This document shows, piece after piece, positions 38,432 to 55,759 of a DNA stretch of 64,000 nucleotides; position 1 is the stretch's first letter; each line of letters opens with the position of its first letter. The position numbers and the translations under genes are program-made. The notes under the pieces are model-generated. The model was not told where the DNA came from, did no database searches, and saw nothing but the letters and a program-made list of their open reading frames with translations. Source of the stretch: a virus (lineage: Duplodnaviria > Caudoviricetes); the IMG/VR virus record IMGVR_UViG_3300036971_000130, one strand, 5' to 3'.

Positions 38432-38982
38432 CGATGAACGTGCTCGGCAAGGTCGCCGGGTCCCTCAACGACAAGTCCGCTCGGAAGTGGGCGAAGAACG
38501 ACAAGGTCATCGAGGCTGGTGCCCGAGGCGAAGCCCGTACTGCCGATGCGCTCCTGAACGGGCGTGACGGAACCATCATGCACGACATGAGGATTCCTGG
38601 TGAGCGAGCCAACATCGACCACATCGTCGTGTCCGGCAACAAGGTCTGGCTCATCGACTCGAAGTGGTGGAAGGGCGGTCGGTACATGACCGTCTTCGGG
38701 AAGACCTACCGTGGCTTCACCCGTGTCCCCCACACCGAGAAGGACACGATGGCTCGGGCCTACGAGAAGGTCGAACGCCACCTGCACGAGAAGGGGGTCG
38801 ACTTCGACTTGCAGACGCCGATCATCGTCGTCTGGTCGCATGAGCCTCTGAAGCTCGGTCTCGCCAAGATCCCCGGTGCTCGCCTCATCGCAGGCGGCAG
38901 CTTCCGTGGTCAGGCCAGGAAGCTGTTCAAGGCCGACGCCAACAACGAGATCATCGACGCCCTGAGGGAACTCGTGATCTGA
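38428..38982 (+). CDS. NERD nuclease-related domain protein
   Basis: GARGE, HD, NIDHIVV, IDSK.W.G. Confidence 0.82.
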   Translation: MTMNVLGKVAGSLNDKSARKWAKNDKVIEAGARGEARTADALLNGRDGTIMHDMRIPGERANIDHIVVSGNKVWLIDSKWWKGGRYMTVFGKTYRGFTRVPHTEKDTMARAYEKVERHLHEKGVDFDLQTPIIVVWSHEPLKLGLAKIPGARLIAGGSFRGQARKLFKADANNEIIDALRELVI

Positions 38983-41900
38983 TGGCACAGCCATTTCAGC
39001 AACCGTCACATGCACCTCTGATCATCGGCGTCTCCGCTCTGATCGGGTGCGGCTTCGCCTACCTCGGGTTCCCAGCCTTCGCCATCATCTGGCTGGGGTT
39101 CGTGGTCGCCGCCTACTTGGAACCACCGGTGATCCTCACCGGGAAGAAAGACCAGTACGGCTCTCCGACCCCACTCCACGATGGAGAGTCGAAGCGGCTC
39201 AGATCGTTTGCGTTCTGGCGTGAACTTCGCACGTCCCTTATTGTGCCGAATGCATCTTGGCTCCCAGGATGGCCGATCCTGGGTTCGTTCATCGGGGCTG
39301 TTGTAGCGGCACTCATCGGCTGGTCCTTGCCGGTGATGTTCGTTCAGCTTCAGCCGGTGAACGCTGTGTGCGGCTTCATCGTCATCTCGGCGGTCATGTC
39401 CGCTCGACGCAAGACGATGGCCGACGGCGACGTGTACGGAGGCGCTCGCCTCAACACCCTCGATGACTACCTGAAGGAGAATCGGCCGATCGCCGTGATC
39501 TCCGTGCTGCTGGGGATCGTCGTTGCAGTCCTCGTTGCAACGAAGGTGCCGCAGTGGCAGGAGACCTCCGCCAAGCAGGTGTTGACGGATCAGAAGACCG
39601 GTGAGGTTGTTCCTCACTCGGCTACGACCATGCCTCCGCCGCAGACGACCGAGGCGGGATCGCCACCGACGATCGAGTACGTGATCCCGACGGTCGACAT
39701 CACTCCGGACCCGAAAGCGACGGCAACGAAGAACCCTGACCTCATCGTCTCCGGTCTCGTCGATTACGGCACTCGATCCATCATCCCACTGACCATCGCA
39801 GGTTTCTTCATCGGGTTCTTCGCTCTGACCGCCCGGCCGTGGTCGAAGCGTTCGATCGAGCACTGGAAGGAGGTTGTCGCTGCCCGAGCGGAGTGGCAGC
39901 CTCGTTGGCGTGCCGCCGGGCTGAAGGACGACACCTTCCCGTGGCTGGTCGAACGTGAGCGGGTCGGCCAGTTCCAGGTGGACACGTTCATCGCTGATCC
40001 ATCGCTGGCCGCTCAGACGATCATCGACACGAAGGCGAACGCCATCAGGCCGACGATCGGCGCTGGCATGAACATGGTGGCCTTGTCGACCCCCGATGCT
40101 CGCAACGGTGAGCCGGTTCCCGGCACCGTGCATCTCCGTCGGTTCCAGATCGTCGTGTGGGACGGTGACCTCACGGACTTCTCGGACCCGGACGCCGACA
40201 TGGACGAGTTGACGCTCTCCGCCCGGATCGGGTTCGCTGAAGCGTGTGATGCTTCGGGGATGCTTCGCTCGGAGATCGTCGAGATCACCCCGATGCACGA
40301 CCTGTCCCCGGTCCCCTCGGACGAGGACGAAGACGACGAAGGCGATGACCTTCCGGCGATTCCCGACATCACCCCGCAGAAGAACTACGGTGCCGTCTGG
40401 GCTGTCCAAACCACGATGGGTGGCGCAACCCGGACGTTCCGGGAGAACTCCCGTGGGGCGATCGCAGGTCGCTTCGGAGTCGACTGCATCATCGACGACC
40501 GTCGCCCCGACCTGAACGGCGTCCTGTTCCTCGGGACCCTGCTCGAAGACGGCGTCACCGGACGTGACGTGCCCGAGCGGTTCACGATGCCGTCGCCTGA
40601 CCGTGAGCCCAACTGGCCGTCCATGTTCCGTCACATCGACATGGAGGACCACTACCGGACGACCTGGCAGCAGTTCCTCCCGCAGCCCGAGATGTACCCC
40701 ACCCCGCACTGGGACTTGGAGATGGACCGGGAGATCATCACGAAGAAGGGCAAGTCTGTCGTGCACGGCCTGGCCTTCGTCTGTCGCCAGGGTGTCCCGC
40801 CGAACACCTTCACGAACGCCAAGACGGAGAAGAACCTCGCCACCACCTGGGAGGCTCCGCTCATGGTCAACATGAACTCCTTCCGGCACAACATCGGCAC
40901 CGGCCAGTCAGCCAAGCGCCAGGACATCGTCAGCCACGCTCAGGCTATCTTCCTGTCCTGGTCGACCGATCACATCCCGTCCTCGATCGTCAACCTCCCG
41001 TTGCAGGTCCAGGGGAACTCTCCGGGCAGCACGTCGGTGAAGTACAGCGCCTCGGTGCCTTCGGAGCCGATCATCTGGGTGATCCAGCACTACGTGAACA
41101 AGGCGTTCGACCAGGTGAAGAAGCCTCGTCCGGACGTGATGACGGCGAAGTGCCTGACCCGCAAGGACTCGCCGGAAGCTCTCTGGGAGATCGAACTGAA
41201 GGTCGTCGGTGGCGAGACCATCGAGACCCTCCGTTCCGCCACTGAGCGTCTCCGAGTAGCTTTCCAGGTGCCGTGGTGCCTGGTGACCACCTGGGAGAGC
41301 GGTGTCACGATCTTCGTCGGAGGCGACCCGTTCAACCCGAAGACGAACCTGGTGAACCCTGACCGTGACGCTGCCCGCCTGAAGGGCTACTCGTGGGAGC
41401 AGGCGTTCATCTCCTGTGGCATCTCCGGCTCCGACGGTGTCATGCCGAAGTTGCAGGACTACAAGCTCCTACCGTCGAACAACGACATCGAGGTACTGAA
41501 GTTCTCGCTGCCGCCCGGCATTTCCCCGACGACGTTCAAGGAGAAGAAGGACAAGCTCTCCACAGCGAAGGGGTACACCTACATCGAGATCGTAGACTCG
41601 GCTGACCCGAAGGTTCTCGAAATGATGGTCTGCGCCGAAGATCCGACTCCGACGGCTGTGATGATCGGCCCCGCTGAACTCGACATCATCGAGAACTCGT
41701 CCGGCGTCCCGTTCGCCACGAACATCCTCGGTGAGGTCGTCGCCTACGACCCGAAGGAATCGCCTCACCTGCTCCTGGCTGGTTCCTCAGGAGGTGGAAA
41801 AAGCGTCTTGGCTCAGGTGTTGCTCTACGGCGCTCTGAAGCGTGGCTGGGACATCTACGTGATGGACCCGATGAAGGGCGCTGCCGACTTCAGCTTCACG

Positions 41901-43103
41901 AAGGACTACGCCCTCGGGTTCTGCACCACGTACTTCGAGGCAGCGGGCACGCTCATGCACATCTACGAGAACGTGGTTCGTGCTCGTGTGGCCTTGAACG
42001 GCCAGTACGGCGCTTCGTCGTTCATGGATCTGCCGGAGGAAGTCCGCCCGAACCGAGTGCTCATCTTCATCGACGAGTTCACGTCGCTCCTTCAGATGGA
42101 TGCAGTCCCGAAGGGCGATGACCCGGACACGATCCAGGAAGCCGAGATCATGTCCGAGCGCAACGAGGCTCGTCGGGCCATCTCGTCGATGGTCGGCAAG
42201 ATCGTTCGTGAAGCTCGATCCGCTGGTGTCACCATCGCCATCGGTGCTCAGGCGATGAAGTCCGACTTCCTGAAGACGCTCCCTGGTGGTGCTGGCATGA
42301 AGGACTCGATGGCTCGTATCCTCATGGGTAACGCAAGCCACGGCGAACGTGCGTCGGCGCTCCGGATGGGCCACAAGGCTCAGGCGATGCCGACAGCGAT
42401 CATCCCGAAGGGCCGAGGCTGGTGGGAGTCTTCCACGGCTGGTTCAGCTTCGGTCATCCAGGTGTGGTTCGCCACGCAGAGCACGTACGCTGCCGCTCTC
42501 GAAGGCATGCCTCTCGCTGACCCGGATCGGATCATCGACCAGGAGCAGTTCTCCGAGCCGGTCGTCCACTCGTTCATGCAAGAGGCCGAGGAAGGCACCT
42601 CGTTCACTGATGGCGTCTTCGTCGAGGACGATGACGAGGTCATCGAACTCGGTTCGTTCCAGGGGTTCACGATCCCTGACGCCCCGGATGACGAGCGTGT
42701 CGCTCCGTTCGTGATCGAGACCGTCGACGACGATGACGAAGGGTTCTCGTCCTTCGATGACCTCCCAGAGATCGTCGTCGACGAACCTGTCCGTCCGGCG
42801 GTGGTGACGGTCGGGTTCGCCGGTGAGGCTGGTGACGTGCAGATCCAGTCGATCGACGAGTTCCTGGCGTGGCTGGACACGGCTGTCGGTTCTGACGTGG
42901 TCGTGAACGTCGCCTCGGACCAGGCGGATGAACTGGTTGGCACGGTGGAGGCGATCTTCGGCCCTGGCATGGTCAGCTTCGTCGTGACCGAACCGGAACC
43001 AGAGCCCGAACCAGAACCGGTACGTCGAGTCTCGCCGTCCAGAATGACGTGGGGAGCCGAGATCGGCAACGGTGGGTTCGATGATGACGACTTCCTGTCC
43101 TGA
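38982..43103 (+). CDS. FtsK/SpoIIIE-family membrane DNA translocase ATPase
   Basis: N-terminal TMs; PHLLLAGSSGGGKS, IFIDEF, REARSAGV...Q. Confidence 0.88.
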   Translation: MAQPFQQPSHAPLIIGVSALIGCGFAYLGFPAFAIIWLGFVVAAYLEPPVILTGKKDQYGSPTPLHDGESKRLRSFAFWRELRTSLIVPNASWLPGWPILGSFIGAVVAALIGWSLPVMFVQLQPVNAVCGFIVISAVMSARRKTMADGDVYGGARLNTLDDYLKENRPIAVISVLLGIVVAVLVATKVPQWQETSAKQVLTDQKTGEVVPHSATTMPPPQTTEAGSPPTIEYVIPTVDITPDPKATATKNPDLIVSGLVDYGTRSIIPLTIAGFFIGFFALTARPWSKRSIEHWKEVVAARAEWQPRWRAAGLKDDTFPWLVERERVGQFQVDTFIADPSLAAQTIIDTKANAIRPTIGAGMNMVALSTPDARNGEPVPGTVHLRRFQIVVWDGDLTDFSDPDADMDELTLSARIGFAEACDASGMLRSEIVEITPMHDLSPVPSDEDEDDEGDDLPAIPDITPQKNYGAVWAVQTTMGGATRTFRENSRGAIAGRFGVDCIIDDRRPDLNGVLFLGTLLEDGVTGRDVPERFTMPSPDREPNWPSMFRHIDMEDHYRTTWQQFLPQPEMYPTPHWDLEMDREIITKKGKSVVHGLAFVCRQGVPPNTFTNAKTEKNLATTWEAPLMVNMNSFRHNIGTGQSAKRQDIVSHAQAIFLSWSTDHIPSSIVNLPLQVQGNSPGSTSVKYSASVPSEPIIWVIQHYVNKAFDQVKKPRPDVMTAKCLTRKDSPEALWEIELKVVGGETIETLRSATERLRVAFQVPWCLVTTWESGVTIFVGGDPFNPKTNLVNPDRDAARLKGYSWEQAFISCGISGSDGVMPKLQDYKLLPSNNDIEVLKFSLPPGISPTTFKEKKDKLSTAKGYTYIEIVDSADPKVLEMMVCAEDPTPTAVMIGPAELDIIENSSGVPFATNILGEVVAYDPKESPHLLLAGSSGGGKSVLAQVLLYGALKRGWDIYVMDPMKGAADFSFTKDYALGFCTTYFEAAGTLMHIYENVVRARVALNGQYGASSFMDLPEEVRPNRVLIFIDEFTSLLQMDAVPKGDDPDTIQEAEIMSERNEARRAISSMVGKIVREARSAGVTIAIGAQAMKSDFLKTLPGGAGMKDSMARILMGNASHGERASALRMGHKAQAMPTAIIPKGRGWWESSTAGSASVIQVWFATQSTYAAALEGMPLADPDRIIDQEQFSEPVVHSFMQEAEEGTSFTDGVFVEDDDEVIELGSFQGFTIPDAPDDERVAPFVIETVDDDDEGFSSFDDLPEIVVDEPVRPAVVTVGFAGEAGDVQIQSIDEFLAWLDTAVGSDVVVNVASDQADELVGTVEAIFGPGMVSFVVTEPEPEPEPEPVRRVSPSRMTWGAEIGNGGFDDDDFLS

Positions 43104-43641: not shown

Positions 43642-44238
43642 ATGGCAGACCAGACTGGCAAGACCAGGGATCAGCCCCGTGACTCGGGAAGGTTCGGGAA
43701 CAAGGATCGTGGCAGCGGACCGAACCTGACCCTCGACAGCCCCTCGCCTGGGTACGACACCGGTGGAATCAAGGTGGTACCGGACATCCCGGTCATCCTG
43801 AAGTTCGAGGAAGCCAAGTGGCAGACGCCGCACATCCGCCCAGTCGACTACCGGAACATCGACTCGTACTCGGGCTACGACGAGGACGACGCCGAGTGGG
43901 TCGGTGAGGTCATCGTGATGAACCACCCCCAGTACGGGCCTGTGGCCTTCCTCGCCAAGAGGCAGCGTCTCGGGTCTGTGTCCGGGACCGTCGTCTCCCC
44001 GGACGGCTACGTCAAGGGTGACGTGTTCTCGAAGGACCTGATCGACGAGCGTGGCGCTGCCGTCGATGGCTACCGCATCGGCAACATCGACAGCGATTCG
44101 ATCGCTGAACTCCGGAGCCAGATCGACAAGGACAGCGGCGGGTACGACCCGGACGACCCGTACACGCCTCCGCAGTCCCCAGCGGCAACCCAGAAGTTCT
44201 GGGGCATGGTCATGGAAGGGTGCGATCAGCAGGCATGA
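43642..44238 (+). CDS. hypothetical protein with N-terminal QPR..GRF motif
   Basis: DQPRDSGRF. Confidence 0.7.
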   Translation: MADQTGKTRDQPRDSGRFGNKDRGSGPNLTLDSPSPGYDTGGIKVVPDIPVILKFEEAKWQTPHIRPVDYRNIDSYSGYDEDDAEWVGEVIVMNHPQYGPVAFLAKRQRLGSVSGTVVSPDGYVKGDVFSKDLIDERGAAVDGYRIGNIDSDSIAELRSQIDKDSGGYDPDDPYTPPQSPAATQKFWGMVMEGCDQQA

Positions 44239-44525
44239 ACGTCGACCTCGAAGACGCCATCTCCGACCACTCCTACCTTGGTGAAGACCATGTGGAGACC
44301 CTCCGGAACGAGGGCGGTGCGGTGTTCATCAACCAGGACGATGTCATCGAGTGTCGTTGGCGTGATGAGGACACCGGGGTCGTCTTCTCGGTGTGGTTCG
44401 AGTCGGGGCACTTCGAGACGTACTGGTGGTCGAAGGACGACGGCGTCTACGACGAGGTCGAGTCCGACTACGACTGCGACTTCGTCACCGTGATCCTCGA
44501 ACTGAGGTCTGACGGCGCAGGCTGA
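44235..44525 (+). CDS. acidic hypothetical protein, tandem paralogue 1
   Basis: ETYW.S...GV.DE shared with next gene. Confidence 0.68.
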   Translation: MNVDLEDAISDHSYLGEDHVETLRNEGGAVFINQDDVIECRWRDEDTGVVFSVWFESGHFETYWWSKDDGVYDEVESDYDCDFVTVILELRSDGAG

Positions 44526-44538
44526 CTATGCTGCGTGT

Positions 44539-44832
44539 ATGGAACCCACCGTCGAAGACATCGTCGCATCTCATCCCCATGTCACGGCCGAGGACATCGC
44601 CATGTTCAAGGCTGCTGGTGCTGGCGTGTTCGTCGGTGAGGACGGGCGCTCGATCAACCTTCGATGGTCGAGGCTGAAGCCTCGGCTGGTGTTCGATGCC
44701 CTGCTTCCAACAGAGGGGATCGAGACCTACTGGTTCTCCGAGGAACACGGTGTCCACGATGAGCGTGAAGTCGGCTACGATGGCTCCGTGATCGAGTCTG
44801 TCCTGCGGATCAAGGCTGATCGCAAGGTCTGA
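44539..44832 (+). CDS. hypothetical protein, tandem paralogue 2
   Basis: Leaderless start after TATGCT. Confidence 0.68.
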   Translation: MEPTVEDIVASHPHVTAEDIAMFKAAGAGVFVGEDGRSINLRWSRLKPRLVFDALLPTEGIETYWFSEEHGVHDEREVGYDGSVIESVLRIKADRKV

Positions 44833-44886
44833 CCGGCAGCGTTTCCCCAGGTCAGAGACCTATTTCTCAGAAAACGGAGAAATGGT

Positions 44887-44971
44887 TGGACAGGGAGGGC
44901 TCCACCACCCATACTGTTCACCGTCAGCCAGCAACCGCCGGTTTGACATCACCTCGGTGACCGACTAGTGT
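44887..44971 (+). promoter_or_regulatory. tandem promoters of the tRNA operon
   Basis: TGGACA-N17-CATACT (44887-44915) and TTGACA-N17-TAGTGT (44943-44971). Confidence 0.72.
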
Positions 44972-45005
44972 CACCGCCAACACCCACCAGAGAGACCCGC
45001 CTCAA

Positions 45006-45128
45006 ATGTTCACCATCTTCGCCGCCGAGACCATGGAAGGATCGCCCATCACGGGCATCACCTCCCATGTCTGTGCGTCGAAGCCGGTGAGCCGAGACTG
45101 GAATCAGCCGGAAAGGGTGGCGAAGTAG
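45006..45128 (+). CDS. putative attenuator leader peptide (40 aa)
   Basis: MFTIFAAETMEGSPITGITSHVCASKPVSRDWNQPERVAK*; last codons overlap antiterminator strand. Confidence 0.65.
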   Translation: MFTIFAAETMEGSPITGITSHVCASKPVSRDWNQPERVAK

Positions 45129-45158
45129 CAGAATCCGACCACAAGTCGATCTGATACC

Positions 45159-45194
45159 GAAGCCACTCCTTCCGGGGAGTGGCTTTCTGGTTTT
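45159..45194 (+). terminator. attenuator terminator hairpin
   Basis: aagccactcct-tccg-gggagtggctt + tctggtttt; 5' arm can alternatively pair with 45108-45121. Confidence 0.75.
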
Positions 45195-45464
45195 GGAAAC
45201 ACACTGAAACAGATCGAACGGAACGAACGCCCGCTGGGAGCCAGAAATCTCAGCAACTCTCGAACTTGGAATCCCGAGCCGTGTGGAAGCGGCGGAGGTA
45301 GCTAGAGGGCATATGTACAGGACCAAGGGAAGCCAGGTTGGACCCGCTAGGAAGCCTCCCCAATGAGTCCGGGACTGTGCAGTAGAGACGCCACAAGGCA
45401 GGGGGTCAGGATGCCAGTCCTGACCCGTCTGCCAACCGGTCACCGGTTCGCCGGTGACCGTCCT

Positions 45465-45535
45465 GGGGGTATGTTCCAATGGTAGGATGACGGTCTCCAA
45501 AACCGACAGTCCGGGTTCGATTCCTGGTACCCCTG
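45465..45535 (+). tRNA. tRNA-Trp(CCA)
   Basis: Cloverleaf, loop ctCCAaa. Confidence 0.88.
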
Positions 45536-45712
45536 CAAAGGCGTGAGAATACGGGTGTCGAGGCCCGTCCGACTTCCCCAAGCTGTCGGTCATCTAAGGA
45601 AGATACACGTCACTATTCCTCTCTCGGTTGGCCGTCAACCTGATCGAGTAACGTGGAAGTCGTCGTAGGCGACAAGGCTCGTTCCGTGCCGAACGGAGCA
45701 GTTGACAGCCAT

Positions 45713-45786
<74 letters not shown>

Positions 45787-45788
45787 CT

Positions 45789-45865
45789 GGCGGGGTAGAG
45801 CAGTTTGGTAGCTCGACAGCCTCATAAGCTGTAGGTCACGGGATCGAAGCCCGTCCCCGCACCCA
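45789..45865 (+). tRNA. initiator-like tRNA-Met(CAT), atypical
   Basis: xGCGGGGTAGAGCAG fMet-type 5' end, 1:72 mismatch, ctCATaa, CCA. Confidence 0.8.
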
Positions 45866-46178
45866 TCTCGTCATCGCCGGATCGGCAAAATCCGGGTCTC
45901 GGAAAACCGGGGTATGCTGCCAGCCTCACAGGCTGGTTAGCTCTCGGCCAGTACGAGGCAGATGACACAACCACAGCAACTCACTGCGTCCTTGCCAGGT
46001 GAGGTGGGTCGCTGTGGAAGTTCTCTGTCAGCCGGGACGGCAATCCCGGTGCTTGGAAGGGGACCCTGGTCGGCGCTTCGGCGTATCAGAAGGGGTCCCT
46101 GGTCCTGGCACGATAGGCAACCGAGCGAAGGAGGCTCCGCACTTGCCGGTGCGGAGCCGATCTCCCTCGGAAGTTCTT

Positions 46179-46251
46179 GGGGTCGTAGCTCAGTTGGTAG
46201 AGCACCTGCCTTGCAAGCAGGATGTCAGGGGTTCGATTCCCCTCGGCTCCA
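46179..46251 (+). tRNA. tRNA-Ala(TGC)
   Basis: Cloverleaf, G3:U70. Confidence 0.92.
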
Positions 46252-46533
46252 CAGGGACCGTGATGGTCCAAACAGAACAACCCGTCATCTCTTGCGTAGG
46301 GGTAAGTTGGCACTTCCTCAAAGCCACCGCTATCGGGCGGCAATGCTGGGGTCGGACCCAGCCCGGCGGCTGAAACCGTCGGTCGGCTAAATCGGACGTG
46401 GGAGAAGTCGTTTCGTCAGGGAACGACTACTGTCGAGCGTGAACCCAGGGCGATGTCCTGGGAGGTGTAGGAACGGGAATGGCTGACCGGAGGGTCGTAG
46501 ATGCCAAGCTACGGCCACTGGAAGGCCCCTCAT

Positions 46534-46611
46534 GGTGTTCGTAGCTCAGTTGGCTAGAGCGCAGCGTTGTGGTCGCTGAGGTCGCGGGTTCGAACCCCGT
46601 CGTTCACCCCA
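46534..46611 (+). tRNA. tRNA-His(GTG)
   Basis: G-1, ttGTGgt, CCA. Confidence 0.9.
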
Positions 46612-46748
46612 ATCGTCAGGTCGGAAGACCTTGGACGTAGAACATCCTGCATCGAAAGTGATCGAGCAGGTTGCTTCCTGACCGCCGACAGGGAAGCGTA
46701 ATGCCGTGGACAAGGGAGCTAGCCCCAACTCCACAAAGTCGGCTCCAT

Positions 46749-46821
46749 GCCCGGATAGCTCAGTTGGCAGAGCGTCCGTCTGAAAAGCGGAAGGTCACCG
46801 GATCGACTCCGGTTCCGGGCA
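46749..46821 (+). tRNA. tRNA-Phe(GAA)
   Basis: Cloverleaf, ctGAAaa. Confidence 0.88.
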
Positions 46822-46954
46822 CGCAAACCGGCCGCAAGCCGGTGGAGGTCGGAGGCATCCGACACAACGGGTTCGCTGACACCCCGTAGTCACGGTCGAC
46901 CGTGAAGAACTGGTCGGCGGGTAGGTATACCCGTCGATACGGAGTCAGTGCCAT

Positions 46955-47030
46955 GCGGTTGTAGCTCAGTCTGGTTAGAGCGTCTCGTTGCCAAAGAAGG
47001 TCGAGGGTTCGAATCCCTCCTGCCGCTCCA
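46955..47030 (+). tRNA. tRNA-Gly(GCC), anticodon stem appears 2 nt short
   Basis: GCG start, ttGCCaa, TCCA end. Confidence 0.72.
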
Positions 47031-47223
47031 TGACCCCCGCAAGGGAGCAGCGTCGGGTTGATCTCCGACAGGTGAAGGACCGTCGTAGTCCTTCGTGAGA
47101 CGGTGTCGAAACCGTCGACCATCCGTGAACGTGACGGGAAGGTGAAGTGGCCGTCTTGCACCGGTCCGGCTTCCGTAAGGGGGTCGAGATGAAGTGAAGC
47201 ATCGTCACCGATACGACACACAT

Positions 47224-47296
47224 GGGGGTGTAGCTCAGTTGGTAGAGCGCCTGGCTCTTAACCAGGATGTCGTGGGTTCGATCCCCTCCGCCCCTA
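47224..47296 (+). tRNA. tRNA-Lys(CTT)
   Basis: Cloverleaf, ctCTTaa. Confidence 0.9.
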
Positions 47297-47333
47297 CCGC
47301 TCTTGTGGACAGAGCCGAAACGTCCACCTTCCT

Positions 47334-47406
47334 TCCCAGGTAGCTCAACTGGTAGAGCATCCGGCTGTTAACCGGAGGGTTGCAGGTTCGAACCCTGCCC
47401 TGGGAG
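47334..47406 (+). tRNA. tRNA-Asn(GTT)
   Basis: Cloverleaf, ctGTTaa. Confidence 0.92.
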
Positions 47407-47557
47407 CTTGCAGTGATCTCCTTCACGACGGTGTTCCGCCATCGAAGTGAAGTCCGGTGAGCGACGACGTGAGAAACCGTTGCGATCCAACAAGGAACGT
47501 AGGTTCCTGGTATGCGGAGACAGGATGTCTCGATCCGGCCAGATCGAACGACCTGTA

Positions 47558-47635
47558 GTGTCTGTAGCTCAGTTCGGTCAGAGCGCCTGTCGTCGAGACA
47601 GGAGGTCGCTGGTTCGATTCCAGTCAGGTCCACCA
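47558..47635 (+). tRNA. tRNA-Arg(TCG)-like, irregular acceptor stem and G33
   Basis: Canonical D and T arms, loop cgTCGag. Confidence 0.6.
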
Positions 47636-47636
47636 T

Positions 47637-47710
47637 GCCGGTATAGCTCAGTTGGCTAGAGCGTCCCGCTCATAACGGGGAGGCCACTGGTTCGAGTCCA
47701 GTTACCGGTA
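47637..47710 (+). tRNA. tRNA-Met(CAT), elongator type
   Basis: Cloverleaf, ctCATaa. Confidence 0.85.
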
Positions 47711-47741
47711 CTGGTCCGCCGCAGACCTACTGCGACAACAA

Positions 47742-47818
47742 CGGGACGTGGCTCAGCTTGGTAGAGCGGGCGCTTCGGGGGCGTCAGGTCGTGGGTTCAA
47801 ATCCCGCCGTCCCGACCA
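47742..47818 (+). tRNA. tRNA-Pro(CGG)
   Basis: Cloverleaf, CCA. Confidence 0.9.
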
Positions 47819-47866
47819 AAGGTCAGTCGCAGACCTTGTGCCCATTCGGGCCAACTGCGACAACAA

Positions 47867-47941
47867 CGGGACGTAGCTCAGTTTGGCTAGAGCGGGCGCT
47901 TTGGGAGCGTCAGGCCGTCGGTTCGAGTCCGGCCGTCCCGA
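47867..47941 (+). tRNA. tRNA-Pro(TGG)
   Basis: Cloverleaf; flank duplicated with previous tRNA. Confidence 0.9.
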
Positions 47942-47977
47942 CAAGGTCAGCACGAACCTCGATCGTGCAAGGAACAA

Positions 47978-48051
47978 CCCTGGTTAGCTCAGAGGTAGAG
48001 CGCCGCCATGTCAGGCGGAGGTCAGTGTATCGAAAGCACTACTGGGGGCCA
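47978..48051 (+). tRNA. atypical tRNA, Asp(GTC)-like with 6-nt anticodon loop
   Basis: D arm canonical, loop atgtca, T loop ATCGAAA, GCCA end. Confidence 0.55.
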
Positions 48052-48052
48052 T

Positions 48053-48127
48053 GCACGTATAGCTCAGCGGCAGAGCGGCTCCCTTACAAGGAGTTGGTCG
48101 GGGGTTCGAGTCCCTCTGCGTGTACCA
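48053..48127 (+). tRNA. tRNA-Val(TAC)
   Basis: Cloverleaf, CCA. Confidence 0.9.
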
Positions 48128-48226
48128 AAGTCAGCGGACAGGCTTCGGTATCCGCCATCCCCGGTGATGTCAAAATCCGGCGCTTCGTGGGAAGCGACAG
48201 CGTCCAGAAGGTCGCACCCACACTGA

Positions 48227-48300
48227 CCGGATGTAGCTCAATTGGAGAGAGTGCCTGACTACGAATCAGGAGGTTGGGGGTTCGAGTCCCTCCGTCCGGG
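48227..48300 (+). tRNA. tRNA-Arg(ACG)
   Basis: Cloverleaf, ctACGaa. Confidence 0.88.
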
Positions 48301-48467
48301 CTAGGGGGACCAGCGGGTCGCTACCGTTGGGCGCTCCTGAACCGACATGAATCGACGACTAGCTACCGTCAGCAACTCACCCCGCATGAAGGTGAGCTTC
48401 GGTGTGAGACCCGATGTCGGTACCATCTCCCGTCGAATGACGGCCCCGAGAGTGGCACTCTCAACAC

Positions 48468-48543
48468 GCCGCTTTAGCTCAGTTGGTAGAGCGCACCCAT
48501 GGTAAGGGTGAGGTGACCGGTTCGATCCCGGTAGGCGGCTCCA
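48468..48543 (+). tRNA. tRNA-Thr(GGT)
   Basis: Cloverleaf, CCA. Confidence 0.9.
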
Positions 48544-48544
48544 T

Positions 48545-48617
48545 TTCGGGATAGTTCAGTTGGTAGAACGCCTGGCTCTGAACCAGGAGGTCGGAGGTTC
48601 GAACCCTTCTCCCGAAG
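48545..48617 (+). tRNA. tRNA-Gln(CTG)
   Basis: Cloverleaf, ctCTGaa. Confidence 0.9.
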
Positions 48618-48674
48618 CAACGCTCGGCTTGTCCGGGCAGAACACCACCTTCTTGCTCGACGGGAAGGTCTCCA

Positions 48675-48751
48675 CGGGACATGGCGCAGCTTGGTAGCGC
48701 ACCGCTCTGGGGGAGCGGGGGTCGTCGGTTCAAATCCGGCTGTCCCGACCA
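48675..48751 (+). tRNA. tRNA-Pro(GGG)
   Basis: Cloverleaf, CCA. Confidence 0.9.
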
Positions 48752-48843
48752 AGAGGTCTGAAGGGCGATCGTGGGCACCCGTCAACGGTCGATACCACCA
48801 CCTCTGATCCAGCCGAAGGCCGAAGATAGGTTGGGTCGACCAT

Positions 48844-48919
48844 CACAGCGTAGCCAAGGTGGTCAAGGCAACCGTCTGCAAAACGGGAGATAGGGGTTCA
48901 ACTCCCCTCGCTGTGTCCA
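48844..48919 (+). tRNA. tRNA-Cys(GCA)
   Basis: ctGCAaa, U73, CCA. Confidence 0.88.
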
Positions 48920-48972
48920 AGGATGTCGAAGTTGGGCATCGTCTGCAATGCCACCCATGATGGGTGTATCAA

Positions 48973-49051
48973 GTCCTCGTAGCTCAGTCTGGTCCAGAGC
49001 GCCGCCCTGTCAAGGCGGAGGTCGCCGGTTCAAATCCGGTCGGGGACGCCA
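48973..49051 (+). tRNA. tRNA-Asp(GTC)
   Basis: Cloverleaf, GCCA. Confidence 0.92.
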
Positions 49052-49097
49052 TCCACATCTGGTGGTCGCTTGACGAGAGCGTATCTCGTCCCAACAT

Positions 49098-49173
49098 GCC
49101 CCGTTGGTCTAGTCAGGTTCAGGACGTTGGACTCTCAATCCAAAGGTCACGGGTTCAAATCCCGTACGGGGTA
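49098..49173 (+). tRNA. tRNA-Glu(CTC)
   Basis: Cloverleaf, ctCTCaa. Confidence 0.88.
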
Positions 49174-49207
49174 CTCAACGCCCGGCGAGAGCGCATCTTG
49201 CCAACAG

Positions 49208-49280
49208 GCCCCGGTCGTCTAGCGGCCTAGGACGCTGGCCTTTCAAGCCGGTAGCACGGGTTCGAATCCCGTTCGGGGTG
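49208..49280 (+). tRNA. tRNA-Glu(TTC)
   Basis: Cloverleaf, ctTTCaa. Confidence 0.88.
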
Positions 49281-49289
49281 CTACGAGAA

Positions 49290-49362
49290 GTTCTGGTGAA
49301 GCAACTGGTGTTGCGGCCTCTCCGAGAGAGGTGCAGGCGGGTTCGATTCCCGTCACCTCGAA
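49290..49362 (+). tRNA. tRNA-like element, identity unclear
   Basis: Canonical T arm, non-canonical D arm and anticodon loop. Confidence 0.4.
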
Positions 49363-49512
49363 CATCGTCAAGGCACGGCACGAGCCATTCCGATCGGATG
49401 GGGAGGGTCGTCGAGTAGGGCGTGAAGGCGATGGTCCACGACTGACCGCAGACCGTACATCTGCAACCTCCACGCACCCTCCTGCTCCGTTCCAGGCAGC
49501 CATGGAACCCTT

Positions 49513-49589
49513 GCGGATGTAGCTCAGTTGGTTAGAGCGTCTGGTTCCCAACCAGAAGGTCGAGGATTCGAGTTCCTCCATCCGCTCCA
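49513..49589 (+). tRNA. tRNA-Gly(CCC)
   Basis: Cloverleaf, TCCA. Confidence 0.9.
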
Positions 49590-49591
49590 AT

Positions 49592-49682
49592 GGAAGGTAG
49601 GTCAGATATTGGTTTGCTGCGCCAGCCTCGAAAACTGGTTGGGTGAAAGTCCATGAGGGTTCGATTCCCTTGCCTTCCGCCA
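49592..49682 (+). tRNA. tRNA-Ser(CGA)
   Basis: Long variable arm, GCCA. Confidence 0.85.
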
Positions 49683-49696
49683 TCTCAAACACCCTT

Positions 49697-49787
49697 GGAG
49701 GGTAGGCAACTGTTGGTTCGTTGCAACGGTCTGGAAAGCCGTGGGGTCTTCGGGCTCCCAAGGGTTCGATTCCCTTACCCTCCGCCA
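49697..49787 (+). tRNA. tRNA-Ser(GGA)
   Basis: Long variable arm, GCCA. Confidence 0.85.
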
Positions 49788-49795
49788 GACTTCTT

Positions 49796-49886
49796 GGAGA
49801 GTAGGCGTACTACTGGTTTGTCGCGCTCGGTTGCTACCCGAGTTGGGTGAAAGTCCATGAGGGTTCGATTCCCTTGCTCTCCGCCA
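49796..49886 (+). tRNA. tRNA-Ser(GCT)
   Basis: Long variable arm, GCCA. Confidence 0.85.
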
Positions 49887-49896
49887 TCGCACCCTT

Positions 49897-49986
49897 GGAG
49901 GGTAGGCAGATATTGGCGAGTTGCTGCGGCAGTCTTGAAAACTGTTTGGGTGAAAGCCCATGAGGGTTCGATTCCCTTGCCCTCCG
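49897..49986 (+). tRNA. tRNA-Ser(TGA)
   Basis: Long variable arm, ctTGAaa. Confidence 0.85.
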
Positions 49987-50011
49987 CTCGCTTGGTGACT
50001 AGGTTGAGGCC

Positions 50012-50323
50012 ATGAAGTTCCTCGCCATCATCGTCGCATCTCTGGCTCTCGTTTCCTGCTCGTCAGGGACCGAGGCTGCGAAGCCGGACATCTGCACGAC
50101 CTCGTTGCGCTCCGGTGAGGCTATGTCCGCATCGGCCATCAAGGACTGCGGCTCCGACAGGATCATGGCCGACAAGATCGTCGTGTCTGAGTCCTGCGGT
50201 TCCGTGACCTGGTTCACCGTGCAGGACGACTCCGATGTCTTCCTGTTCCGTCAGGGTGTCCCAGCCATCCAACTTCCGGCAGGAACCGAGTTCTCGTTCC
50301 CAGACAAGACACCGGACTGCTGA
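50012..50323 (+). CDS. putative lipoprotein within tRNA array
   Basis: LVSC lipobox; TAGGTT box 6 nt upstream. Confidence 0.7.
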   Translation: MKFLAIIVASLALVSCSSGTEAAKPDICTTSLRSGEAMSASAIKDCGSDRIMADKIVVSESCGSVTWFTVQDDSDVFLFRQGVPAIQLPAGTEFSFPDKTPDC

Positions 50324-50426
50324 ACAACCACCAACCGATCGAGAAAGGATCGCCCGATGCTGAACGCCAAATCGCCCTCACGGGCGACCTCCTGCGTCTG
50401 ACGCAGATCGTCCGTACTCCCGTCTC

Positions 50427-50502
50427 GGGGGTCTAGCTCCAATGGTAGAGCAGCGGACTTTTAATCCGACGGTTGAGGGTTCGACCCCCTCGGCCCCCAC
50501 CA
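50427..50502 (+). tRNA. tRNA-Lys(TTT)
   Basis: Cloverleaf, CCA. Confidence 0.88.
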
Positions 50503-50503
50503 T

Positions 50504-50580
50504 GCCTGCATAGCTCAGTTGGACAGAGCGTCTGGTTCCGGACCAGAAGGTCGGAGGTTCGAGTCCTCCTGTGGGCACCA
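50504..50580 (+). tRNA. tRNA-Arg(CCG)
   Basis: Cloverleaf, CCA. Confidence 0.92.
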
Positions 50581-51287
50581 GCCCGAAGACGGGAGGCAAG
50601 GGAGGCGGGTCTCCGTTCGAGCAGACCACAACCACCGGCAAGAAGCCGGTCCCGACGACCGCTGCCGAGCAGACCACGACTTCCGAGGCCACCACGACCA
50701 CCGAAGCCGCCTCCTACGACGAGAACTCGCCTTCCGCCGACCTCGATCGTGTGCTCACGAAGAACGATGTCGTCGCTGCGATCTCGCTCGTCGGTGACGA
50801 GGGCACGGATGTCAGCGAGTACCAGAAGATCGACTCCGACTTCGCTTCGCTGTTCGACATCTGCCCCGGCACCTCGGACGTGATCCCGAACGGGACGCTC
50901 GTCGGCAAGGAGTGGAAGAAGCCCTCCGGCGATGTCCTCCTGATCGTCGCTGGGATCGACTCGGACACGCTCGTCGATGACGACCAGAACGAGATCCTCG
51001 TCGACAAGTTCAACAACTGCAAGATCGACGGCGACGATGACGAAGGCAACAGCGTCTACGTGAGCGCCTTCGCCAACAAGTCCTACCAGGACAACTCGTT
51101 CTCGTGGGACATCTCCGCTCGTTCCTACCTGGTCGACGGCACCACCAAGAAGTTCGCCACGGACGGCTACTCGTTCCGCTACGGGAACGTCTCGGTCCTC
51201 GTCATGCGAGCCTCCATCGAGGATCGCTACGACCAGGATGTCACGGACATGGCACGGGAACTTCGTGCCGAGTTGGTGATGTCCTGA
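50581..51287 (+). pseudogene. 5'-truncated secreted/lipoprotein gene abutting tRNA-Arg CCA
   Basis: Strong coding bias, Thr-rich linker, no signal peptide or start outside the tRNA. Confidence 0.6.
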
Positions 51288-51340
51288 CCCACCACCCATG
51301 ATGTAGGTGTCCCGGTTTCGGCCGGGACCCGCATCATCCT

Positions 51341-51411
51341 GCGGGCGTAGCTCAATGGTAGAGCATCTGGCTTCCAACCAGAGTATGAGGGTTCGATTCC
51401 CTTCGCCCGCT
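51341..51411 (+). tRNA. tRNA-Gly(TCC)
   Basis: Cloverleaf, ctTCCaa. Confidence 0.92.
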
Positions 51412-51565
51412 CTCGGAACTGGCCGTGCGGCCCTTAACCAACGGCCGGTTCCTACTTTCGCCACATCGGTACGCCGATGGTCGTCGACCCTGAAGCCGAC
51501 GGGGGTCGTGAAGCGAGATACCCACCCACCCTGGTACCAAGGGAGGGATGGCACGTCGGCTCCAT

Positions 51566-51641
51566 GCCTGGTTAGCTCAGTTGGTAGAGCATCCCCCTCG
51601 TAAGGGGAAGGCCGTCGGTTCGATCCCGACACCAGGCTCCA
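51566..51641 (+). tRNA. tRNA-Thr(CGT)
   Basis: Cloverleaf, CCA. Confidence 0.92.
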
Positions 51642-52002
<361 letters not shown>

Positions 52003-52044
52003 CGACCTAGGACACAGGTCATCTCACCACCCATGATGGGTGAC

Positions 52045-52260
52045 ATGCAGACGACCTACGCATCACCCTTCCACCTTCGTGCCGGAGACAAGGTTCTCGA
52101 AACCGATGGTTCGGTTCTCGAAGTCATCAATGTCGGCCAGGTCTTCGATGTGATCACCTGCGGTCTGCACGCTAAGATCGAGCTTCGTGACCAGAACGGT
52201 GAGACCATCACGGAGAACGTGCCGGGCAACGCCAAGGTGAAGAAGGTCATTCCGGAGTAG
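52045..52260 (+). CDS. small SH3/KOW-like protein; stop codon lies inside tRNA-Gln
   Basis: Leaderless start; LRAGDKV...LEV. Confidence 0.6.
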   Translation: MQTTYASPFHLRAGDKVLETDGSVLEVINVGQVFDVITCGLHAKIELRDQNGETITENVPGNAKVKKVIPE

Positions 52261-52323
52261 TTCAACTGGCAGAACGACGGGTTTTGGACCCGTTTGTTGC
52301 GGGTTCGAATCCTGCCTCCGGAT
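52251..52323 (+). tRNA. tRNA-Gln(TTG)
   Basis: Cloverleaf, ttTTGga. Confidence 0.88.
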
Positions 52324-52364
52324 CTAGGTTGGACATCGTCCAGCCCACCACCCATAATGGGTTC

Positions 52365-52958
52365 GTAAGATAGAGCGATCCGATCAGCTTCTTGCGGGAA
52401 GCTGTTAGGACGGCGGACCAGGCCGCAACCTGGTTGGGTGCCCAGCAATGGGGTCCGCCGCCGGTCAGCTTGATCCCCTTCGGGGTAGGGTTGGCGAGCA
52501 CGAACGGAGATACCTTCGACGATTCGTTCGTAGTACCAGTCGAGGGTCGGAGCGGTAAGCTCCGGCAGTCGGGTGTCATGGGCACGTAACGCCTTCGGCA
52601 CCCGACCGGAACACCCAAGTCGTCGCAGCGACTCAAAACAGTGCTTAGGCTGCGAGCGTTCGCTGAACAGCGAGGTGCACTGACCGATCGGATTGCAGTC
52701 CGAGAGGCGGTAGAACAGAGAGACTGCAATCTCTCCGTGATGCCGGTTCACCTGCGTGGTGAGCGAAGGGGTCCAGTCCGAATCCAAGGTCTGGGTCTAG
52801 TGACTTATCGGAGCAGTCCAAGTACATGGGCTGTGTGTGAAATCCCCCAGGGCGACCCCTGGGGGACGAAGCGAGATGGCTACATCACGAACCTAGACGG
52901 CAGTCGAAGTTCGAGGTGGGAGCCACAAACCGGGGGAGGACCCATGTCCTCCCCCGGT
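52365..52958 (+). ncRNA. large structured ncRNA, probably ROOL-like
   Basis: Own promoter TGGACA-N17-CATAAT (52330-52358); many hairpins; long-range stem 52376-52385/52686-52695; terminal hairpin; motifs CTGAACAG, CTAGTGACT, GTGAAATC..GACGAAGCGA recalled from ROOL. Confidence 0.55.
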
Positions 52959-52967
52959 ACATTTCAG

Positions 52968-53041
52968 GCCGAAATAGCTCAGTTGGCTAGAGCGGCCGTC
53001 TTGTAATCGGCAGGCCATGGGTTCGATTCCCATTTTCGGCT
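52968..53041 (+). tRNA. tRNA-Thr(TGT)
   Basis: Cloverleaf, ctTGTaa. Confidence 0.9.
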
Positions 53042-53259
53042 CAAACCGGTCCTACAGCGGAACTCTGTAGGGGTGTCAGGTGAAACCCAGCCGGGAAGAT
53101 GGTCCGAGAGGGCCGGACTTGCTGGTGGAACCACCTGGCTAGAATCGGAAGGTCGTCCCGATGGCTCCACGGAGCACAGGGCCATAGCACCGACACTCCC
53201 CGGATATGCTGGCGGGGAAGCCACCAACAGGACAGTCAACCCCTGGTGGTGGCACATAA

Positions 53260-53336
53260 CGACCCGTGGCTCAGCCCGGTAGAGCAGCACCATGACGCGG
53301 TGAAGGTCGGAGGTTCGAATCCTCTCGGGTCGACCA
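53260..53336 (+). tRNA. tRNA-Val(GAC)
   Basis: Cloverleaf, loop atGACgc, ACCA. Confidence 0.78.
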
Positions 53337-53421
53337 ACTCCCCCTTCCAAGGGGAGTGAAGACGTGGCGTCTCTACTAGCTTGCCCTACATCACCAAGTG
53401 GTGTAGGGTGAGCAAGAACTC

Positions 53422-53566
53422 TCTGCGAGCCAAAGGTTCCCTGTTACCTACACTGCGAATGTACCCCAATCGGGGGACCATCAATCGCCCGCAGAACACT
53501 CTCAGATCAAGCCAAGATCGTCTGATTACCCTTCTGTCACCTCAGACCATCGCCATCGCCTGATCC
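53422..53566 (+). ncRNA. two tandem Y-RNA-like hairpins upstream of Ro60
   Basis: Both have outer stem-AGCCAA, inner stem-TTACC, 3' ACCATC..ATCGCC; units 53422-53495 and 53505-53565. Confidence 0.55.
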
Positions 53567-53635
53567 GAACCCAACTGAACACCGCCAGGACACGCCAGAT
53601 CGGCGGTCCGAGCCACGATCCCAAAGGGACACACC

Positions 53636-55228
53636 ATGACGTACAAGAACCTCGCCACCCGCCCGCACCTCACTTCGACGCCGCAGACGAAGCAGTCCGA
53701 TCCTCGTCAGGTGAAGAACGCCGCCGGTGGCTACGTGTTCACGATCTCAGACGAAGACCTCCTGCGCCGGTTCCTGATCCTCGGGACGACCGCCGGGACG
53801 TACTACGTGAACGGCACGAAGCACACAGCCGACACGTTCGAGAAACTGCGAGGTGTTTTGGACCGCCTGGGTGCCCGGTTCGTGGACATCGTCGTCGAGG
53901 TCTCCGATGGAGGTCTCGCTCCGAAGAACGACGAAGCGATCCTCATGTTGGCTCTCGCCACCTCGGCGGAGGACCCGGTCGTGAGGAAGTACGCTCTCGA
54001 TGCGCTGCCGAAGGTGGTCCGCATCGGAACGCACATGTTCCAGTTCTCGACCTTCGTGCAGCAGTTCCGTGGCAACGGCCCGGCGCTGATGAAGGCCATG
54101 CGTCGTTGGTACACCGATCGTTCGCCGGAGTCCTTGGCGTACCAGTTGGTGAAGTACCAGCGTCGGAACGGCGTGAGCACGAAGACGGTCCTCGGGGTCG
54201 TCCGACCGAAGCCGAAGAACCCGGAACAGGGAGTCGCCTTCGAATGGGCTGTCGGGAAGCGTGGTGACCAGAAGACCGGTCTCCGTGCGATCGACGGCTA
54301 CATCGCCGCTCACACCGAGGGTGCGGACATCCCTGCTCTCGTCCGTGAGTTCGGACTGACCCACGAGATGCTGCCGTCGCAGTCACTCAGCGATCCCGCT
54401 GTGTGGGTCGCCCTGGTCGAGAAGATGGGCCTCACCGCTCTGATCCGGAACCTGGGTCGTCTCACGAAGCTCGGCGTCCTCGACGACCGTGCGATCCGTG
54501 CTGACGTGATCTCCCGCATCACCGACCACGAGAGCATCCGTGCTGCTCGTGTCCACCCGATCGCCTTCCTGTTCGCTCTCACGGCGTACAAGTCCGGTGC
54601 AGGGCGTTCCGGCACGGAGTGGACCCCGATCCCGTCGATCATCGACGCTCTGGACAAGGGCTTCGTCGAGGCGTTCGTGAACGTGGAGTCCACCGGGAAG
54701 CGTCGTCTCATCGCTCTGGACGTGTCCGGCTCGATGGGGATTGAGTTCATCGCCAACTCGAAGCTCTCCGCTCGGGATGCTTCGGCGGCTCTGACGAAGA
54801 TCGCTCTCACCGTCGACGACTGCGATGTCATCGCTTTCACCAGCGGTGATCGCCGAACCCACCGGGACGCTGTCGCTCCGTTGACGATCTCCGCCAACCA
54901 GCGGCTCGACGACATCATCGACGACATCTCGGACCTCCCGTTCGGTCACACGAACTGTGCTCTGCCGTTCGAGTGGGCTTTGGAGAACGACCGTGTCTAC
55001 GACTCGGTCGAGGTCTACACGGACTGCGAGACGTGGGGTGGGAACCAGCACGTCCACGAGGCGCTGGCGAAGTACCGTCGCAAGACGGGCGTCAACACCA
55101 AGCTGATCGTGGTCGGGATGACCGCCACCGATGCGTCGATCGCTGACCCGAACGACCCCGATTCGTTGGATGTCGTCGGGTTCGATGCGTCGGCTCCGGC
55201 TGCCATCTCCCGCTTCATCTCGGCATGA
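53636..55228 (+). CDS. rsr: Ro60/TROVE RNA-binding protein with vWA domain
   Basis: QVKNAAGGYVF, LRRFLILGT, RIGTHMF, YQLVKYQ.R, ALIRNLGR, DVSGSM, TD.ET, GFD. Confidence 0.93.
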   Translation: MTYKNLATRPHLTSTPQTKQSDPRQVKNAAGGYVFTISDEDLLRRFLILGTTAGTYYVNGTKHTADTFEKLRGVLDRLGARFVDIVVEVSDGGLAPKNDEAILMLALATSAEDPVVRKYALDALPKVVRIGTHMFQFSTFVQQFRGNGPALMKAMRRWYTDRSPESLAYQLVKYQRRNGVSTKTVLGVVRPKPKNPEQGVAFEWAVGKRGDQKTGLRAIDGYIAAHTEGADIPALVREFGLTHEMLPSQSLSDPAVWVALVEKMGLTALIRNLGRLTKLGVLDDRAIRADVISRITDHESIRAARVHPIAFLFALTAYKSGAGRSGTEWTPIPSIIDALDKGFVEAFVNVESTGKRRLIALDVSGSMGIEFIANSKLSARDASAALTKIALTVDDCDVIAFTSGDRRTHRDAVAPLTISANQRLDDIIDDISDLPFGHTNCALPFEWALENDRVYDSVEVYTDCETWGGNQHVHEALAKYRRKTGVNTKLIVVGMTATDASIADPNDPDSLDVVGFDASAPAAISRFISA

Positions 55229-55308
55229 GCTACGGCCCGTATCCACCGTACCCTTAACAGTACGGCGGGTACGGGCCTTCTCACGTTCCGAAGCAACGTG
55301 ATCCGCTG

Positions 55309-55734
55309 TTGGCGTTCAAGGTGATCGCCGGTGTGTTCGGGGTGACCTGCCTGCTCGTTCTCGTCGGCTTGTTCGTGTACGGGTTCGCTGCGTCGATGAC
55401 GACTGGTTCTGACCGTGTCCTGGTCACGGCGAAGGGCGAGAGGTGCTTCGTCGACTACCGGTATCGGACGCCCCGTGACGACTGTGAGTACACGATCATC
55501 ACACGGAGTGGCGATGTCTTCATCGTGAACGGTCCGAAGTCGTCGTCTCCGGCTGGCCGGGCTGACTACGACGACTTCGTGGAGTGCTCGATCTACGAGA
55601 TCACCTACCGTGGGTTCGAGTCGAGCCGTGAGATCACGTCAGCCTCCCTCGTCGAGTCGGACAAGGCTTGGACGCCGACCTGCGCTGAGCCGGAGGTCAT
55701 CTCCCTGACGGCTCTCGCCACGGCGTTCGCCTGA
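55309..55734 (+). CDS. membrane-anchored hypothetical protein (start uncertain)
   Basis: N-terminal TM helix. Confidence 0.6.
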   Translation: MAFKVIAGVFGVTCLLVLVGLFVYGFAASMTTGSDRVLVTAKGERCFVDYRYRTPRDDCEYTIITRSGDVFIVNGPKSSSPAGRADYDDFVECSIYEITYRGFESSREITSASLVESDKAWTPTCAEPEVISLTALATAFA

Positions 55735-55759
55735 AACATGTGTGGTAGCATGTAGGGCC

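Follow-up and report, generated by a model that had tools for sequence, protein, structure and literature searches.

The leader described here can best be compared with the attenuators of amino acid operons, such as trpL, hisL, leuL, thrL, pheL and the ilv leaders. These attenuators have a short promoter-proximal ORF that is followed by an intrinsic terminator, and an antiterminator that has one strand in common with the terminator and is covered when a ribosome stands at the end of the ORF. The same arrangement is present in front of the tRNA array of the mobile element analysed here, where the effect of masking was predicted in silico. However, there are clear differences. The genes behind the leader encode tRNAs of a mobile element, whereas those behind the known attenuators encode biosynthetic enzymes. 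Moreover, the ORF contains no run of codons for a single amino acid and is 40-121 codons long in the different loci instead of 14-30 codons, the antiterminator helix includes the stop codon, and the terminator is followed by a conserved structured RNA of 270 nt. T-box riboswitches also tie the control of a terminator and an antiterminator to the status of a tRNA, and also have a conserved G-rich antiterminator strand. Unlike these, the leader gives no Rfam match and has neither a Stem I nor a specifier nor a bulge for the tRNA 3' end, but an ORF instead.

The tRNA arrays of phages and plasmids have been discussed as a means of codon compensation or as a substitute for host tRNAs that are cut by defence nucleases (PMC10264068, PMC11555353). 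Like the tRNA array units in the genomes, plasmids and phages of Mycobacterium (PMC5966550, PMC6515697, PMC4758250), the locus described here belongs to an actinobacterial mobile element and packs >30 tRNA genes densely together, but it also contains an RNase P RNA, a Pistol ribozyme and Ro60. To our knowledge, it is largely unknown how the expression of phage and plasmid tRNA arrays is controlled. Among the papers listed by full-text literature searches, none describes attenuation or leader peptides in connection with tRNA arrays or tRNA gene clusters.

The Element and Its tRNA Array

The stretch of DNA analysed here, called the window in the following, comprises 64,000 nt and belongs to a metagenomic element with a G+C content of ~62%, of which the longest contig has 233.5 kb. 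In front of the leader, the window carries the type I-C CRISPR-Cas genes Cas3, Csd1/Cas8c and Cas7 (31219-36362) and encodes an FtsK/SpoIIIE-like protein of 1373 aa (38982-43103), the nearest relatives of which are actinobacterial. Two adjoining paralogous small proteins (44220-44525 and 44539-44832) share 29% identity (E 3e-17). Neither of them has a family match, and for the 97-aa protein, which is located immediately upstream of the leader, the search gave no relatives outside the element.

In total, 36 tRNA genes were called in the window, spanning positions 45465-57647, and none of them is a tRNA for Leu or Tyr. The first tRNA of the array is a tRNA-Trp(CCA) (45465-45536, plus strand), which also takes the first position in the related loci L006, L007 and L015 that are introduced below. 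Inside the array, directly 3' of a tRNA-Thr, lies a complete class A RNase P RNA (51647-52001, 181 bits), and a Pistol self-cleaving ribozyme (52618-52680; Rfam 59.3 bits vs a gathering score of 34.5) is found downstream of an internal promoter. Ro60 is encoded at 53636-55228. One call of ARAGORN (47978-48051) is a tRNA whose anticodon was read as two bases ('gt') and left unassigned, for which there is no Rfam tRNA match at the gathering score.

Promoters and Transcription Units

The element has a promoter consensus that recurs all over the window and is composed of a TTGGACA-like -35 element, 17 nt and then the 9-mer ACCCATNNT. This 9-mer occurs 44 times in the window, vs 4.6 copies expected, and many of the copies have the TTGGACA-like element 17 nt upstream. 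Of the 44 copies, 17 are followed by a start codon after exactly 6 nt, which is the arrangement expected of leaderless genes, and the consensus ACCCATGAT is often followed by an ATG after the same 6 nt. Examples of consensus copies are those at 1316, 20505, 26423 and 62362. With a promoter scan, an element-type promoter was found on the plus strand at 44887-44915, which consists of the -35 sequence TGGACA, 17 nt and the -10 sequence CATACT with ACC before it. No start codon follows this copy (44907-44915), and therefore a 5' leader of ~85 nt is expected before the ORF. By analogy to the leaderless genes of the element, the leader transcript should start near 44922.

The first-pass annotation of this DNA had assumed two promoters. 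Whereas the site at 44887-44915 fits the element consensus, the second one is present but weaker and can only be called promoter-like (44943-44971, plus strand). It has a perfect -35 sequence TTGACA (44943-44948), followed after 17 nt by TAGTGT (44966-44971), which fits TATAAT at three of six positions. The promoter scan does not report this site, and an inverted repeat (44956-44962 with 44970-44976) extends over it.

Within the array, five further copies of the consensus promoter have a -35-like element (48953, 51294, 52029, 52350 and 57467), and a sixth copy of ACCCATGAT at 57205 has no evident one. Because of these internal copies, the tRNA array most likely consists of several transcription units. 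According to these predictions, the RNase P RNA and Ro60 are transcribed from separate promoters and are independent of the leader, which speaks against the earlier proposal that the leader switches the whole tRNA/RNase P/Ro60 island. Later parts of the array have consensus copies directly in front of them, but no copy is present between the terminator described below and tRNA-Trp.

In the related loci, a promoter-like CCACCCA motif lies 95-100 nt before the ORF. The same motif is also found in L007 directly after tRNA-Trp (14205-14235), where it heads a leaderless ORF of 132 aa, so that the leader unit of this locus may hold tRNA-Trp alone. Furthermore, a 10-nt motif, CCCGCTAGGG, occurs ~14 times in L007 when both the motif and its reverse complement are counted.

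Related Loci

The comparison is based on four distinct sequences, namely the window, L006, L007 and the lineage L014-L020. Five further loci (L001-L005) are identical copies from other samples and therefore provide no variation. L006 and L007 were reached through two homologs of the FtsK-like protein, which are 43% identical over the searched region and 37-38% over the full length, and the L014-L020 lineage was found with a profile of the small ORFs. The FtsK-like neighbours in the related lineages are only 35-43% identical to that of the window. The loci L008-L013 and L021 have FtsK homologs as well, but no tRNA array.

Searches that started from other parts of the locus revealed no additional relatives. 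An exact search of viral contigs with the terminator sequence gave no matches, an alignment search of viral contigs with the FtsK-like protein found nothing, and a pattern for the spacer core, which matches all known copies, hit nothing in metagenome, genome or viral collections. With blastn against phages and plasmids the tRNAs were matched, but nothing else.

L006, L007 and L014-L020 have the same layout, consisting of a promoter motif, an ORF whose stop codon lies in a long hairpin, a terminator, a spacer of ~270 nt and tRNA-Trp. The stop codon of the ORF is TAG at the same aligned position, and the terminator is located 39-40 nt beyond it. Hence, the attenuator layout that had been proposed for the window recurs in three related lineages.

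The Leader ORF

The leader ORF (45006-45128, plus strand) comprises 40 codons from ATG to TAG. In the window, its GC content at codon positions 1/2/3 is 0.46/0.51/0.80, like that of the real genes of the element, and its Shine-Dalgarno pairing is comparable to that of other genes. The positional homologs in L006, L007 and L014-L020 have 79, 121 and 114 codons, respectively. All four versions have a gene-like GC3 of 0.71-0.82, which is seen neither in the other frames nor in the ORF on the opposite strand. That opposite-strand ORF (214 aa, 44949-45593) was rejected as a gene since its GC distribution (0.63/0.58/0.57) is not gene-like and it overlaps the tRNA.

Between L007 and L014 the ORF has diverged by ~20%, vs ~2% for the non-coding part of the leader from the ORF end to near the tRNA. 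All four indels between the two ORFs are multiples of three (18, 3, 3 and 3 nt), dN/dS is 0.51 at a dS of 0.44, and blocks of the peptide are conserved. Moreover, the contexts of the start and stop codons are conserved despite a threefold variation in length. From the in-frame indels, the gene-like GC3, the dN/dS value and the conserved start and stop contexts, the leader ORF looks translated. A stretch of ~22 nt is duplicated in tandem in the L006 version of the ORF (14195-14245), so that the peptide FDRMNSV is repeated.

No relatives of the ORF product were found outside of these loci. A phmmer search of 1.8 billion proteins with the 40-aa peptide retrieved the peptide itself and low-complexity matches only, and the four ORF versions gave no matches to Pfam and PHROGs.

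These data also bear on a simpler explanation, namely that the ORF is an ordinary small gene for a fast-evolving, trans-acting small protein and that the terminator just ends its mRNA. The tRNAs would then owe their expression to a leaky terminator or to a spacer promoter that was not recognised, and the pairing of the ORF end would be incidental or would stabilise the 3' end of the mRNA. The dN/dS value, the peptide blocks conserved in L007 and L014 and the gene-like lengths of 79-121 codons are in line with such a gene. On the other hand, the protein would be down to 40 residues in the window, with only the start, the end and the RNA behind them being kept, and the lack of any family match and of any relatives beyond these loci is hardly expected for it. 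We regard this explanation as unlikely, but as one that has to be taken seriously.

Terminator and Antiterminator

The ORF is followed by an intrinsic terminator on the plus strand (45159-45194) with a stem of 12 bp and a loop of 4 nt. Its 5' arm covers 45159-45170, the loop 45171-45174 and the 3' arm 45175-45186, and a broken U tract extends to 45194. When the sequence after the stop codon (45129-45200) was folded without the ORF, a z-score of -4.45 was obtained. This terminator is the sole strong one predicted on the plus strand across 14.5 kb (44000-58500), and it is conserved in L006, L007 and L014.

The last seven codons of the ORF together with the stop codon and the next four bases (45108-45132, plus strand) form the 5' strand of a predicted antiterminator hairpin. 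In this hairpin, 45108-45113 and 45115-45121 pair with the 5' arm and the loop of the terminator, and 45125-45132 pair with 45150-45157. The hairpin is topped by an apical hairpin of 4 bp with a 5-nt loop (45136-45148, plus strand), an equivalent of which is present in L006, L007 and L014. Thus, the ORF, the terminator and the pairing of the ORF end with the terminator 5' arm, all of which had been noted from the letters of the DNA, were confirmed in the sequence and in the folds. In L006 and L007, the antiterminator helix is long and nearly perfect. Furthermore, a short hairpin between a C-run and a G-run within the last codons possibly acts as a weak 1:2 structure, which would give the 1:2/2:3/3:4 topology of trp and in this respect resemble the attenuators of amino acid operons.

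The alternative pairing is part of the minimum-energy folds of 45060-45200 (z = -2.6) and 44960-45200 (z = -5.5). Before the 3' arm of the terminator is included, the 5' arm is predicted in each of the four loci to pair with the end of the ORF, and the stop codon thereby becomes part of a hairpin of as many as 22 bp. When the full sequence is folded, the two alternative states of the four loci, antiterminator and terminator, are 0-4 kcal/mol apart, and the terminator forms in silico in all four of them when a ribosome footprint at the stop codon is masked. Folding with the ORF end masked therefore gave what the first-pass annotation had predicted.

The statistics of the pairing itself are less clear. 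The best duplex of the terminator 5' arm with the 128 nt upstream is the one with 45108-45128 (-20.7 kcal/mol), and its energy is matched by 27 of 1000 dinucleotide shuffles (P = 0.027), whereas the P-values for the corresponding duplexes of the relatives are 0.001, 0.067 and 0.114. The duplexes are hence only modestly better than shuffled sequences. These weak statistics fit an ordinary small gene as well. The G-rich end of an ORF easily pairs with the pyrimidine-rich arm of a terminator.

Further evidence comes from the substitutions between L007 and L014. The 95-nt segment with hairpin and terminator has three of them, all of which are compatible with the hairpin. Two of them compensate each other and convert a C-G to a U-A pair, and the third changes a U.G to a C-G pair in the apical hairpin. 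By a rough estimate, the chance that two of three random substitutions fall on partner positions is ~2%. However, the compensatory pair belongs to a section of the hairpin whose formation does not preclude the terminator core. The strictly competing helix, which is formed by the G-run and the 5' arm, has a compensatory pair and a broken one in the window, and all other changes in it are one-sided. A covariance model of the antiterminator that was built from the relatives gives the site of the window only 8.6 bits (E 2.5 window-wide), which is rank 8 in the window, so that this site does not stand out significantly.

The antiterminator has a GGGUGG core that is invariant in all four loci and that we take to resemble part of the T-box sequence. 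A T-box-like switch, in which uncharged tRNA would be sensed directly via this core, is nevertheless highly improbable. In the region 44800-45480 neither a T-box (RF00230) nor another Rfam family is matched at E-values up to 10, GGGUGG is fully paired and not located in a bulge, and the ORF is found where Stem I would be.

A Putative Ribosome-Mediated Attenuator

Taking the sequence comparison and the folds together, we assume tentatively that the first transcription unit of the tRNA array is headed by a ribosome-mediated transcription attenuator, an explanation that we consider the best one and only slightly short of probable. It is favoured by the conserved module, the frame-preserving indels of the ORF, its gene-like GC3 and the antiterminator and terminator folds in the four loci. 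Further points in its favour are the much lower divergence of the non-coding leader than of the ORF, the substitutions that agree with the hairpin, and the lack of a consensus promoter between the terminator and tRNA-Trp. Transcription would start at the element-type promoter near 44922, and the 40-codon ORF would be translated. Its last codons and the stop codon would serve as the 5' strand of the long hairpin, whose 3' strand includes the 5' arm of the terminator. If the ORF end is free of ribosomes when the polymerase arrives, due to slow decoding, poor initiation or a shortage of charged tRNA, the long hairpin would form first and sequester the 5' arm, and the polymerase would read through into the spacer, tRNA-Trp and the tRNAs behind it. 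In contrast, a ribosome at the stop codon would cover the 5' strand, so that the terminator hairpin could form and transcription would stop. We infer translation of the ORF, function of the terminator and the response of read-through to the position of the ribosome.

Several points stand against the attenuator. Besides the modest duplex statistics, the low covariance score of the window and the small number of four distinct sequences, the terminator forms a local hairpin that might displace the competing helix, since it is the more stable of the two. The dN/dS value of 0.5 and the conserved peptide blocks suggest that the product itself matters in L007 and L014. Finally, 79-121 codons are long for a leader peptide, and tandem regulatory codons are absent.

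If the attenuator exists as proposed, the element would measure translation performance and supply tRNAs on demand, and the textbook mechanism of attenuation would extend from amino acid operons to tRNA genes.

The Structured Spacer RNA

Between the terminator and the first tRNA lies a spacer (45195-45464, plus strand) that is a conserved structured RNA and whose last hairpin is located 4 nt upstream of the tRNA; tRNA-Trp thus starts 271 nt past the terminator. In the relatives, the spacer covers 14368-14632 of L006 and 13836-14104 of L007. It is ~270 nt long and is predicted to form nine helices with 62 pairs, with 89.8% of the cells being paired. Pairs that changed on both sides number 23, vs 8.3 +/- 2.2 in shuffled alignments (none of 500 reach 23) and 2-5 in slid controls, and the core hairpin is almost invariant. 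Since Ro60 is encoded nearby, a Y RNA or YrlA was considered as identity of the spacer and rejected, as the window has no Rfam match to them at the gathering threshold and 44800-45480 has none at E-values up to 10. Other Rfam families are not matched by the spacer in this region either, and the adjacent covarying RNA of 270 nt is a further uncharacterised conserved element.

The covariation indicates that the spacer is a transcribed RNA. As there is no consensus promoter for it, its transcripts probably must pass the terminator, which favours a regulatory terminator. For the same reason, the spacer does not go well with an ordinary small gene, because with no consensus promoter downstream of the terminator the spacer RNA must be transcribed from upstream.

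The conservation of the spacer also fits another type of leader, in which translation of the ORF would be irrelevant. The 22-bp hairpin could be a site for RNase III-type processing or for stability, or a protein or RNA that binds to the spacer or to the hairpin could override the terminator. The long helix of L006 and L007 with its nearly perfect pairing and the strongly conserved, structured neighbouring spacer with its almost invariant core hairpin agree with this, and the RNase P RNA and the Pistol ribozyme in the array point to an elaborate RNA processing. Nevertheless, we consider such a leader to be quite unlikely, as it leaves the frame-preserving indels, the gene-like GC3 and the stop codon that is always inside the helix unexplained, and no candidate for the factor was identified.

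Amino Acid Composition of the Leader Peptide and the tRNA Set

The first-pass annotation had also assumed that the leader peptide samples the codons for nearly the whole tRNA pool. Indeed, the peptide contains 18 types of amino acids, each used one to four times, with only Leu and Tyr being absent and no tandem or run of regulatory codons in the ORF. This set is exactly the one that is served by the tRNAs of the window, which has a chance probability of P ~3e-4, although the match was noticed post hoc. The counts and the match of the sets thus stand, but the diversity of the peptide is ordinary, since 18 types in 40 residues are reached with P = 0.16 in random draws and P = 0.11 in real 40-mers, and the absence of Leu from a 40-mer has a P of 0.07-0.08. 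Furthermore, no amino acid is missing from any of the homologous ORFs, which have 79, 114 and 121 codons, and in L006 only three tRNAs follow within the fetched sequence. Hence, the related arrays do not show that the amino acid content of the leader tracks the tRNA content.

As a special case of the attenuator, the peptide could nevertheless act as a codon roster that is matched to the tRNA set of the array, with the loss of any of them stalling the ribosome and switching on the whole tRNA/RNase P/Ro60 island. The exact match of the sets supports this, and so does the replacement of Leu in the ORF of the window at positions where Leu is conserved in the relatives. However, apart from the post hoc nature of the match and the composition of the relatives' ORFs, the arrangement of the array argues against it. 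The ORF includes codons for Glu, Ser and Asp, and the tRNAs that read these are located downstream of the next internal promoter, and the RNase P RNA and Ro60 have, as predicted above, their own promoters. A roster of this kind is distinctly unlikely, and the codon-sampling and whole-island parts of the original proposal are weakly supported. The link to a cleavage of host tRNAs, which that proposal also drew, is purely conjectural.

In a more general form, the element would gauge the overall decoding capacity with a translated 'test' ORF and raise its own tRNA supply when ribosomes lag, with the amino acid set of the ORF being tuned to the tRNAs of the array. To us this seems rather unlikely. 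If it applied, the leader would provide tRNA genes with a circuit for homeostasis or counter-defence, for which no description was found in the literature searched.

A second short ORF is located further downstream in the array, at a position where no plus-strand terminator is predicted. It comprises 14 codons (50358-50402), has the Shine-Dalgarno sequence GAAAGGA and lies just before tRNA-Lys(TTT) and tRNA-Arg(CCG). Its sole Lys and Arg codons are AAA and CGG.
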